From IMG/VR virus record IMGVR_UViG_3300008740_000001, positions 139,860 through 203,859 of that record: 64,000 nt of DNA. One strand, written 5' to 3'. Positions 18,833 through 52,397 of the stretch are shown piece after piece; position 1 is the first letter of the stretch; each line of letters begins with the position of its first letter. This DNA comes from a virus. Its lineage: Duplodnaviria > Caudoviricetes. Position numbers and translations under genes: made by a program. The notes under the pieces were generated by a model, which was given only the letters and a program-made list of their open reading frames with translations, made no database searches and was not told where the DNA came from.

Positions 18833-19785
18833 GGGTCTCCATGTCGCAACTGCAGAAGATTATTAAAGAAGAGCTTGACGAGGCCACCGCTCTGGGTACC
18901 TCTTGGGCGGACAAGATGGCTCGGGAGTATGGCGCATCGAGTCGCAAAGAAAAAGAGCGCGGCCGGAAGAGAAAAAAGGGCGACAAAGAAAAAGTCAAGG
19001 AAGAAGTCGAGGAACCGACCAGCTTTGCTCCAACAGCGGCAGAAGAGGCTCAAAAGATCAACGATCAAACTGGCTTGACTTATGTTACTGATCAATCGTA
19101 TTGGGAGAGCATGGGTGTGAAGACGGGTGAAGACTTGGCAAGAACGGTTTTGTTTCAAACATATTCAGATACATACAAAGAATTATACGGGCACCGGCCC
19201 AGAGGCATGCCGTGGAAAGAAATGACACCTCAAGAGATTCAAGACGCTCAGGCTGCACTTGACGATGAGTGGATGGAACATCGCCATCATGATGATCAAG
19301 CTTGGAAAGACGACGATCCCGAATATATTGCACGCGCCAAAGAAATAGAAGCAGAATACGAAGCAGAGAAAGAAGCAGCCGCCAGCGCCGCCGAAGAAGA
19401 GAGAATGAAAACTCCCGAACAAGGCGAAGAGTTTCCCAAACGCGCCGGGATGGGCAAAAGAATGAAGGAGACTAGCACAAGGAGAGGCACAGTGAAGATT
19501 ACAACAGCAAAGTTAGACGAGATTATCAAAGAAGAGACAGACTCGGCCATTAAAGAATGGGAAAATACCCGAGATTACCGCGAGGGCCTATATTCCGGCT
19601 TGGGCGAACCAGAACATGAAATGAGCGACGAGGGCAACAATGTATTTGTAACCTCTGGTGATACGCCACCAGAGAGAGAAGGTTACCTTGAAGCGCGCAT
19701 TATTGATGCGGTAACACTTTTGAAGCAGGGACACTCTGAAGAGGCGTTAGAAGAATTGATGAACGCCTTGACAACCAAGTTATAA
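18829..19785 (+). CDS. Putative virion internal protein
   Basis: MRVSMSQLQKIIKEE and internal VKITTAKLDEIIKEE. Confidence 0.6.
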   Translation: MRVSMSQLQKIIKEELDEATALGTSWADKMAREYGASSRKEKERGRKRKKGDKEKVKEEVEEPTSFAPTAAEEAQKINDQTGLTYVTDQSYWESMGVKTGEDLARTVLFQTYSDTYKELYGHRPRGMPWKEMTPQEIQDAQAALDDEWMEHRHHDDQAWKDDDPEYIARAKEIEAEYEAEKEAAASAAEEERMKTPEQGEEFPKRAGMGKRMKETSTRRGTVKITTAKLDEIIKEETDSAIKEWENTRDYREGLYSGLGEPEHEMSDEGNNVFVTSGDTPPEREGYLEARIIDAVTLLKQGHSEEALEELMNALTTKL

Positions 19786-19796
19786 TCTGTTATATT
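19768..19796 (+). promoter_or_regulatory. sigma70-type promoter (leaderless start at 19803)
   Basis: TTGACA-17-TATATT, 6 nt before the GTG. Confidence 0.7.
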
Positions 19797-19802
19797 ATAT
19801 AA

Positions 19803-20066
19803 GTGAAATACAAAGTAGGCGACATTGTACTAGTCGAGTCTTTTGCTGGGCCCCAAGTGCGTGTCCGACTAAAGACACGGATCATAAAGCCAAACAATGG
19901 CTGGGGTGCAGACGGCTGGGATGCTGTGATAATTTACAAGAAAGATGTAGACGCTCTCATTAGCAGTGGTGTGCCGTATAAGCGCGGCAGCAAACCCACT
20001 ACTTTTGTATTTGATGAAGACATCATCAAAAAGGTGATAAAAAAAAGACGCACAAAGCGTAAATAA
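19803..20066 (+). CDS. Small SH3/KOW-like family protein
   Basis: YKVGDIVLV N-terminus. Confidence 0.55.
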   Translation: MKYKVGDIVLVESFAGPQVRVRLKTRIIKPNNGWGADGWDAVIIYKKDVDALISSGVPYKRGSKPTTFVFDEDIIKKVIKKRRTKRK

Positions 20067-21580: not shown

Positions 21581-21857
21581 AGACCGAAGAGCCCAGTCAG
21601 CCAAATACAGAAAAACAGTAAAGAAGGCCAAGGGCGCCGAGACACCAATCGGTGCCAAGATGTTGCTTTTCGGCCTTATTCCCGAAGAGTGCACTGCCTG
21701 CAGCGCGGCATTTGACAAAACAGATCGAGAAATGGTCATGTCGTGGAACGTCGTTGTGCGCGAAGAAGAAGAAAAAGTAAACTTATATTGCCCACCTTGC
21801 TGGCAGCAGGCGTTGGACGTTATTAATGGATTTTACGATAGAGTAGAGGAAGAATGA
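21564..21857 (+). CDS. Zinc-finger-like protein
   Basis: CTAC...YCPPC. Confidence 0.55.
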   Translation: MLMNRKDRRAQSAKYRKTVKKAKGAETPIGAKMLLFGLIPEECTACSAAFDKTDREMVMSWNVVVREEEEKVNLYCPPCWQQALDVINGFYDRVEEE

Positions 21858-51494: not shown

Positions 51495-51545
51495 CATTTA
51501 CTTGACAAAGAACCTCTTGACAGCGACCGAGGCATATGGTATATT
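51491..51545 (+). promoter_or_regulatory. Triple-box promoter copy 6
   Basis: TTGACA-5-TTGACA-9-TTGACA-17-TATATT. Confidence 0.85.
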
Positions 51546-51569: not shown

Positions 51570-51917
51570 GTGGGTTATAGATCAGAAGTTTTGCTAGCAG
51601 TCAGCGCGAAGGCTTACGCGCTGCTTACCACCAAAATCGCCAAAGGCGGGCCATTCGCGGAGTTGTTTAGTGATGAGTGCACATCGGACCAGCGCGATTA
51701 TGACAACGATGGCAGCAAGATGTTTCTTTGGGGAAGTGTCAAGTGGTACGACAGTTATCCAGAGGTCGCTGCCGTCGAGCAGTTTATGTCAACTCTTGAT
51801 GAAAACGATATGGAAGAAGAATACAAGTTTGTCCGTGTCGGTGAGGACATGGACGACAACGAAGGACGAGGCTGGGGTTTTGATGACATCTATATCACCC
51901 GCTCAATCAACTACTAA
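51570..51917 (+). CDS. Conserved phage hypothetical protein
   Basis: MGYRSEV..KWYDSY..FVRVGED; AGGAG RBS. Confidence 0.7.
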   Translation: MGYRSEVLLAVSAKAYALLTTKIAKGGPFAELFSDECTSDQRDYDNDGSKMFLWGSVKWYDSYPEVAAVEQFMSTLDENDMEEEYKFVRVGEDMDDNEGRGWGFDDIYITRSINY

Positions 51918-52106
51918 TCGAGGCTGTCACGCGAGACACCAATAACTATAAGTGAGGGCTCATTGTCTCTAACGAGCCCATGCGTCAGGATAGGCTCACT
52001 AACTATGAGCATGGCGCGAACCCGCAAGGGAGTGATAGAGAGACTAGCGAGGGCAACGCGGCGAGAACAGCGCAGCCTGTGGTGTCCGTGATGGGCAACC
52101 TCGATT
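51916..52106 (+). ncRNA. Candidate structured non-coding RNA (~190 nt)
   Basis: Three-segment closing helix plus internal hairpins and a possible pseudoknot. Confidence 0.6.
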
Positions 52107-52142
52107 AGTAAACTTTATAGCAACCAAAAACAGGATCATAAC

Positions 52143-52397
52143 ATGACCGACGAAACTTATTCACACGTTGACTTGACACCCGAAGAACTCCGATTTTTGC
52201 TGATGATGCGCGAACTGGCAACTAACTGGGTTGAACTAGATTTGACTGAACGTGGCCGCGCATGTATTGACATGCTGGTGCTTGAAGGCTTGGCAGAACG
52301 CAGGAGTGAACAAGGCGCATGGGTGAACCAATGGCGTCTGACCCCATATGGTCAGATCGAAGCAGATAACCGTACTTGGCCTTCGGCGTTTGCTTGA
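52143..52397 (+). CDS. Small winged-helix-like hypothetical protein
   Basis: L..EGLAE...WRLTPYG pattern. Confidence 0.5.
   Translation: MTDETYSHVDLTPEELRFLLMMRELATNWVELDLTERGRACIDMLVLEGLAERRSEQGAWVNQWRLTPYGQIEADNRTWPSAFA

Follow-up and report, generated by a model that had tools for sequence, protein, structure and literature searches.

Sequence comparison points to a previously uncatalogued pseudoknotted RNA family in uncultured marine T4-like phages

RNAs C and D of bacteriophage T4 (species 1 and 2, encoded by rnaC and rnaD) are small stable non-coding RNAs whose function is unexplained. They share a transcript with tRNA-like genes and occupy the 3′ part of the T4 tRNA gene cluster, rnaC ending in a tRNA-like T arm, and their ends depend on tRNA-processing enzymes. 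GOLLD and ROOL, orphan RNAs of phages and prophages that are supported by covariation and often located beside tRNA genes, are likewise unexplained in function; they are 400 to 800 nt long and consist of many domains. Structured RNAs in promoter-proximal or intergenic positions inside operons include HK022 put and Bacillus EAR, a pseudoknotted RNA of about 120 nt found between genes of an operon. Among marine phages, a glutamine riboswitch has been reported beside the tmRNA gene in OM43 phage Melnitz and pelagiphage Mosig, and the Melnitz tmRNA is placed behind an early promoter (PMC9004378).

Here, we describe an RNA that, judged by sequence comparison, is a member of a previously uncatalogued family from uncultured marine T4-like phages. 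Like T4 RNAs C and D, the family is small and non-coding, occurs in T4-type phages, and in most copies lies close to tRNA-type genes. Unlike them, it is built around a pseudoknot core and occupies the 5′ end, and the copy flagged in the first-pass annotation adjoins no tRNA gene. It differs from GOLLD and ROOL in being 110 to 190 nt long with a single pseudoknot domain. The glnA RNA (RF01739) is also small, pseudoknotted, and located next to a phage tmRNA behind an early promoter in marine myophages, but the RNA described here consists of a closing stem, an H-type pseudoknot, and a terminal hairpin, with no expression platform, and was not reported in the study of Melnitz (PMC9004378). Its location inside operons recalls put and EAR, but there is no sequence or model match to either, and several copies lie upstream of promoters.

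The window analyzed here is a 64-kb stretch of DNA that constitutes the final part of a viral record, 203,859 bp long, whose ends are direct repeats. The RNA element fills a 225-nt gap (51918-52142) between an open reading frame (ORF) of 115 amino acids (51570-51917) and one of 84 amino acids (52143-52397), neither of which was assigned to a family. A near-consensus promoter precedes the first ORF, and the next promoter of the same type is located at 52420-48. No terminator was found between the promoters at 51517-45 and 52420-48, RNA element included; thus, ORF 51570-51917, the RNA, and ORF 52143-52397 would form one early transcript. The features of the locus are as follows.

51517-51545, + strand: putative sigma-70-type early promoter, TTGACA-17-TATATT with TG (extended −10), assigned by consensus match only
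51912-51941, + strand: 5′ strand of P1, interrupted (51912-23, 51927-31, and 51935-41), complementary to 52080-52110
51942-51955, + strand: J1/2, A-rich single-stranded linker ATAACTATAAGTGA
51956-51979, + strand: P2 hairpin GGGCTC/GAGCCC with the 12-nt loop ATT-GTCTCT-AAC
51965-51970, + strand: pseudoknot 5′ strand GTCTCT in the P2 loop, pairing with 52039-44
51980-52038, + strand: variable P3 region (fold constrained by the comparative helices), with compound hairpin GCGTCA (51982-87)/TGGCGC (52012-17) around GCTCA/TGAGC (51994-98/52006-10), then CCC-GCAA-GGG (52021-30), then purine-rich GTGATAG running into the pseudoknot
52039-52044, + strand: pseudoknot 3′ strand AGAGAC
52045-52050, + strand: conserved joiner TAGCGA (family consensus C-U-R-(A)-G-C-R-A)
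52051-52078, + strand: P4 hairpin GGGC/GCCT plus CGC/GCG with loop GGCGAGAACA (52060-69), from the constrained fold
52080-52110, + strand: 3′ strand of P1 (52080-86, 52087-91, and 52099-110)

The first-pass annotation had proposed a candidate novel phage ncRNA with a pseudoknot, or a ribozyme, and its hand-drawn core, namely the closing stem, the GGGCTC hairpin, the loop-to-downstream pseudoknot, and the GNRA hairpin, coincides with the family consensus that is kept by covariation. The closing helix AATCGAGG/CCTCGATT is found at 51916-23/52099-106 and extends to 12 bp (TACTAATCGAGG, 51912-23, with CCTCGATTAGTA, 52099-110), so that the first bases of P1 overlap the final codons and the TAA stop of ORF 51570-51917. 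The inner helices TCACG/CGTGA (51927-31/52087-91) and GACACCA/TGGTGTC (51935-41/52080-86) lie where they had been drawn, as do hairpin GGGCTC/GAGCCC (51956-61/51974-79) and the CCC-GCAA-GGG hairpin, and the element adjoins a AGTAAACTT site (52107-15) that the 3′ end of P1 overlaps. Two other proposals fared differently. The repeat AACTAT(A/G)AG is present, as AACTATAAG at 51944 and AACTATGAG at 52001, but is not conserved in the family. The AGTGA/TCACT helix (51951-55/51996-52000) is not supported: no relative shows an equivalent helix, and a local hairpin, GCTCA/TGAGC at 51994-98/52006-10, competes with it.

The folding energy of the element is −78.4 kcal/mol, compared to −59.9 ± 4.4 kcal/mol for shuffled controls (z = −4.2), and none of 200 shuffles was as good. 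The minus strand of the element folds equally well (z = −4.35); therefore, energy alone cannot give the strand. In the minimum-free-energy fold, GUCUCU/AGAGAC is drawn as a nested helix and P2 is lost. Since a minimum-free-energy fold cannot represent a pseudoknot, we preferred the comparative model.

Relatives of the element were collected by several routes. A search with nhmmer of loci fetched via the flanking proteins yielded one weak match (L042), in which P2 is changed in a compensatory manner from GGGCTC/GAGCCC to GGGTTC/GAACCC and the altered pseudoknot strands are still complementary (GTCCC/GGGAC). About 45 distinct members, nearly all of them marine, came from scanning viral, metagenome, and genome collections for the hairpin pattern. 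In the homologs found by nhmmer and by pattern scans, the sequences of P1 and of the pseudoknot differ, while the layout is the same. An exact 24-mer scan of viral contigs gave no match. A looser pattern, GGNNTCANNGTCNCNAACGANNCC, produced mostly chance matches in GC-rich coding DNA that were removed by the stem and pseudoknot tests, and 10 of 11 matches in the genome contigs (genome_contigs) were due to chance. As MAFFT could not align the 3′ halves across all subtypes, covariance-model alignments took its place. A model built from subtype B alone finds the window copy with 29.8 bits (E of about 1e-4); model R2, for which the window copy was one of the building sequences, scores it at 57.6 bits. 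The second model added members that lie outside the search pattern (L040/L041 and L155), as well as a second copy in the genome of the window.

A sample chosen independently of the RNA was used against selection bias. It consists of 80 viral loci (L174-L253) fetched via a 121-amino acid protein that is often encoded upstream of the RNA. The RNA is present in about 46 of the 80, right after the gene for this protein, and the sample includes AT-rich minimal forms of roughly 110 nt without P3. The family was seen in roughly 90 marine viral or metagenomic loci. Among 50,697 cultured phage records, blastn with the region and three subtypes left the element unmatched and detected only tmRNA 3′ ends, and tblastn with the 121-amino acid protein found nothing. 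No description of the RNA was found in the literature searched. The RNA may be among the more than 8,000 unnamed candidates from IMG/VR (PMC10690425).

All members share one order of elements: P1, an A-rich linker, P2, an optional P3, a purine-rich run, the 3′ strand of the pseudoknot, a joiner, and P4, which abuts the 3′ strand of P1. The total length ranges from about 110 to 125 nt in minimal forms to about 190 nt in the window copy. P1 is 10 to 15 bp in the family and is longer and interrupted in the window, where its innermost 7 to 10 bp align with P1 of all relatives. The J1/2 linker is A-rich or AU-rich in every member and varies from 11 to 30 nt. P2 has 5 to 6 bp and a loop of exactly 12 nt, of which positions 4 to 9 pair downstream. 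The number of hairpins in P3 varies from zero to three. Short relatives have at most one, and that is small. The window copy and its closest subtype combine a compound hairpin with a GNRA hairpin, a layout of two hairpins that recurs, with GAAA as the loop, in the long type C relatives. The sequence CT(A/G)GC after the pseudoknot is near-invariant in all subtypes. The P4 loop is GNRA-like and purine-rich in all members, its consensus G(A)GC-N-A-R-G-R-A being kept across subtypes. In the window, a single G (52079) separates P4 from the P1 3′ strand, and P4 stacks on P1.

Compensatory changes in the relatives preserve P1, P2, P4, and the pseudoknot. In an alignment of 47 sequences (a 34-sequence version was also run), 96.6% of helix cells are paired, compared to 37 to 49% when partners are slid, and changes on both sides occur in 26 of 31 pairs. 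The covariation score, with the pseudoknot counted, is 0.611, while shuffles score 0.195 (0 of 500 reach the observed value) and slid partners reach at most 0.116. Because the nested helices guided the alignment, they are favored in these figures; the covariance model never contained the pseudoknot. P1 shows both-side changes in 10 of 10 pairs and P4 in 5 of 5. P2, in which 100% of stem cells are paired, has stem variants that include GC to AU, UA to CG, and G.U, while its loop length is invariant. The proposed pairing of GTCTCT with AGAGAC proved real: 94.7% of the cells in this helix are paired and five of six pairs covary, although it lies outside the covariance model. At least 10 distinct complementary versions exist, among them GUCUC/GAGAC, GGCUC/GAGCC, GACUC/GAGUC, GUUCG/CGAAC, GCCGC/GCGGC, GUCAC/GUGAC, and GUCCC/GGGAC. 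P2 and the pseudoknot stem are thus both supported, as is characteristic of an H-type RNA pseudoknot. Across the helices, G.U cells outnumber A.C cells (82 versus 20). The pairing therefore works only on the plus strand, which places the RNA on that strand, and the RNA always has the same orientation as the flanking genes. The pseudoknotted fold is conserved on the plus strand.

We compared the element with known RNA classes. None of the 4227 covariance models of Rfam 15 matched over it at gathering thresholds, leaving the window copy without a known family. When the limit was relaxed to E values up to 10 for the window copy and the L044 copy and up to 5 for 11 further loci, no family appeared either, the only scores at the tested loci being those of neighboring tmRNA and tRNA genes. 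The element is not a tmRNA or a piece of a two-piece tmRNA, since ARAGORN and RF00023 match the true tmRNAs and nothing at the element, and the RF04321 match in L044 comes from the 5′ half of a true tmRNA. Insertions and deletions occur throughout the members, so there is no conserved reading frame. Neither glutamine riboswitch model, RF01739 (glnA) nor RF01704 (Downstream-peptide), matched, and no terminator or alternative that sequesters a ribosome-binding site was seen. Homology to T4 rnaC/rnaD was also rejected: cmsearch with R2 and filters off over 70.7 to 71.4 kb of T4 gave a best hit of 9.9 bits located outside the annotated RNAs. By gene arrangement, co-transcription with tRNA-type genes is predicted for about 30 relatives and, roughly, for the second copy in the same genome, but not for the window copy.

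Covariance models of known ribozymes (hammerhead, twister, twister-sister, pistol, hatchet, HDV-like, and glmS) gave no match. The bacterial Y RNA model (YrlA, RF02553) matched weakly over the 3′ domains of tmRNAs and tRNAs, never over the element, and no Rsr-like protein was seen among the neighbors scanned. The strings GACUGGCGA and GACUAAGC resemble consensus strings of the ZTP riboswitch and of tmRNA. This likeness was set aside since the Rfam models of those families do not match.

In most relatives, gene order would make the RNA the first element of a tRNA/tmRNA transcript, and the same is true for the second copy in the genome of the window. In subtypes A and B, a dedicated TTGACA/TATATT promoter stands directly upstream of the RNA and a tmRNA follows downstream. 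Subtype A ends 8 to 25 nt ahead of the phage tmRNA (113 to 128 bits to RF00023), and in subtype B, one conserved small ORF lies between the RNA and the tmRNA. In about 30 of the 80 protein-anchored loci, tRNA-Gly(UCC) or tmRNA starts 6 to 30 nt past P1. With the RNA ending so close to the next RNA gene, RNase P cleavage there would release it.

The genome of the window encodes a tmRNA at 19518-19938, followed within 5 nt by a tRNA. The second, divergent copy of the RNA is found about 300 nt upstream of this tmRNA, at G000:C1:19070-19206 (= L151:1053-1189, + strand; full P1 at L151:1040-1196), with a TCGACA-17-TATATT promoter ahead and, between RNA and tmRNA, the small ORF also seen in subtype B. 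The flagged copy is its enlarged, solitary paralog, located about 31 kb away across the genome ends. Solitary copies in related phages (subtype C, L040) follow a protein gene and precede triple promoters, and in genome G001 the tmRNA is 29 kb from the solitary copy. Phages such as G005 and L159 have a tmRNA and no copy of the RNA; thus, tmRNA function does not depend on it. That a single genome has two diverged paralogs, of which one is tmRNA-linked and the other solitary among early-gene cassettes, suggests a function beyond tmRNA expression.

The genes next to the RNA gave few leads. Pfam and PHROGs returned nothing informative for the flanking ORFs (P0001 and P0002), the 121-amino acid protein, the 268-amino acid proteins, or the 79- to 80-amino acid ORF, and Atlas look-ups returned viral hypothetical clusters and a weak HTH_8 lead only. 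A covariance-model search showed that the element is missing from loci L002-L039, which carry relatives of P0001; therefore, the adjacency of gene and RNA seen in the window is not conserved. The sequencing runs listed as containing the sequence include no RNA-seq run. DNA contigs of four runs, which cover the element in part, contained no variant inside it.

What could such an RNA do? Our leading interpretation, which we hold tentatively, is that it is a stable trans-acting small RNA that presents loops to a partner linked to translation. Judging from the sequence of the loci, host-type promoters would drive its early synthesis within a longer transcript. In the fold supported by covariation, P1 joins both ends, with P4 stacked on it and the H-type pseudoknot formed by P2 and its loop pairing in between. 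In the linked copies, which lie 6 to 30 nt or one small ORF before tRNA-Gly or tmRNA, the RNase P cut at the 5′ end of the downstream tRNA or tmRNA would set the 3′ end of the RNA and free a discrete molecule. Solitary copies such as the flagged one, which have no adjacent RNase P site, would have to be cut out through the long P1 instead, for example, by RNase III or RNase E; this step is conjectural. Once freed, the RNA could work in trans, its rigid pseudoknot core offering conserved loops to a protein or ribosomal partner, which is a guess. Conserved purine-rich single strands of the fold are the A-rich stretch ahead of the pseudoknot, the joiner CUrGC, and the GNRA-like loop of P4. The putative partner would be connected with translation or RNA metabolism during takeover of the host. 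A bolder reading, to which we give little credence, makes the RNA a partner of the rescue module that steers trans-translation or protects phage tRNA and tmRNA during takeover, or else a new class of ribozyme or ligand sensor. As a rescue partner, it would be freed by RNase P from the tmRNA/tRNA precursor and bind the ribosome or a rescue or defense factor. If true, either version of this reading would amount to a new functional RNA class with a defined biochemical activity.

The position of the RNA is also what a cis-acting transcript element would have. Such an element could cause antitermination, as HK022 put and Bacillus EAR do, protecting long untranslated tRNA/tmRNA transcripts from Rho, or could cap the 5′ or 3′ end against nucleases. 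In about 46 of the 80 protein-anchored loci, the RNA is transcribed first after a strong promoter and before untranslated RNA genes, a start-of-operon position that would suit a role in cis; no terminator follows the element; and EAR is likewise pseudoknotted, about 120 nt long, and located within an operon. The solitary type C copies, however, close a transcription unit just upstream of new promoters, which weakens this explanation. The window copy precedes a single 84-codon gene and then a promoter, and polymerases starting there never transcribe the element. No Rfam cis-element matched at E values up to 10 in the window or up to 5 at eleven loci, and we consider a role in cis rather unlikely. 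A catalytic RNA, self-cleaving or otherwise active in processing the polycistronic transcript, would fit the location between transcript units, and small pseudoknotted RNAs with conserved nucleotides at their junctions, as exemplified by the twister, pistol, hatchet, and HDV-like theta ribozymes, are often encountered in phages and near tRNA genes. But no Rfam ribozyme model matched, nothing in the comparison speaks for self-cleavage, no candidate cleavage site is evident, and the variable 6- to 30-nt spacer means that the RNA cannot make the exact 5′ end of tmRNA or tRNA, an end that RNase P makes anyway. We regard catalysis as very doubtful.

The compact pseudoknot and highly conserved unpaired nucleotides are typical of aptamers, and the glutamine riboswitch beside the tmRNA of cultured marine myophages (PMC9004378) is a precedent for a riboswitch-like sensor of a metabolite or ion that tunes the maturation or expression of the downstream tmRNA, tRNA, or small ORF. 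Several features make this improbable. P1 is linked neither to a terminator nor to sequestration of a ribosome-binding site, which leaves the RNA with no expression platform; the gap to the next gene ranges from 6 to more than 300 nt; promoters come after the solitary copies; and the glnA and Downstream-peptide models do not match. The last alternative is that there is no RNA and that the element is a site acting in DNA (a recombination junction or a signal for replication or packaging) or an inverted repeat that arose by chance. In favor of this, the two strands fold equally well, the window copy is located in a region of cassette shuffling, and it abuts the repeated motif AGTAAACTT. Against this stand the fourfold excess of G.U over A.C cells, with pairing that works on the plus strand only, the compensatory changes in the pseudoknot, which would be meaningless in duplex DNA, and the dedicated promoters ahead of most copies. 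These observations largely refute a DNA-level site and make it hardly tenable.

Whatever its role, a compact pseudoknotted RNA with strong covariation support is now defined as a companion of phage tmRNAs and tRNAs. Its members are widespread among the uncultured marine T4-like phages of an abundant group, sharing transcripts with tmRNA and tRNA-Gly as judged by gene order, and the 110- to 125-nt forms provide a small, tractable RNA. It may illuminate the half-century-old puzzle of why stable small RNAs are kept in the tRNA operons of T4-type phages.

Several further observations concern the tmRNA-linked loci. The small ORF between the RNA and tmRNA is conserved and encodes 77 to 80 amino acids (L151:1298-1540 in the genome of the window, L078:2255-2494, and L155:3126-3359), begins with MWKLWRENNGYIQGEL or MWQFWKWNGRYIQGDL, and has its stop codon 27 to 40 nt (9 to 13 codons) inside the tmRNA gene. 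An RNase P cut at tmRNA +1 would remove the stop codon from the mRNA of this ORF and so turn the message into a trans-translation substrate, as in the case of ArfA in E. coli. The relatives of the ORF in the Atlas have 68 to 70 amino acids and no overlapping tail. The slot just downstream of the 121-amino acid HTH-like gene (about 2340-2600 in L174-L253) contains RNA genes that vary by lineage: this RNA, tRNA-Gly(UCC), tmRNA, or combinations of these. In L200, the RNA is separated from tRNA-Gly by an inserted cytidylyltransferase-like gene. In L221 (1622-2099), L222 (2629-3096), and L229 (1500-1970), ARAGORN calls a tmRNA of about 470 nt with the atypical tag VDTKLGKDCYSKLNEL after tRNA-Gly; each of these unusually long calls is either an odd tmRNA or an erroneous call on some other structured RNA. 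A subtype A copy is also present in CP070664.1 (L144, a bacterial metagenome-assembled genome labeled “candidate division WOR-3”), where the RNA, a phage tmRNA, and phage genes lie at about 250-2900 beside a run of N. The gene order is identical to that of viral contigs L127 and L139, and the locus is probably not a host gene but a phage fragment, mis-binned or chimeric.

The 9-mer AGTAAACTT occurs 13 times in the window, always on the plus strand, compared to 0.5 occurrences expected. The sites are at 21776, 35528, 42967, 46076, 46501, 49340, 50202, 52107, 53199, 54003, 54735, 55775, and 59808. As the P1 stem of the RNA ends in one of them, the RNA may be bounded like the neighboring gene cassettes. 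The motif contains TAA and is often found at gene ends, and GATTAGTAAACTT is common to three of the sites.
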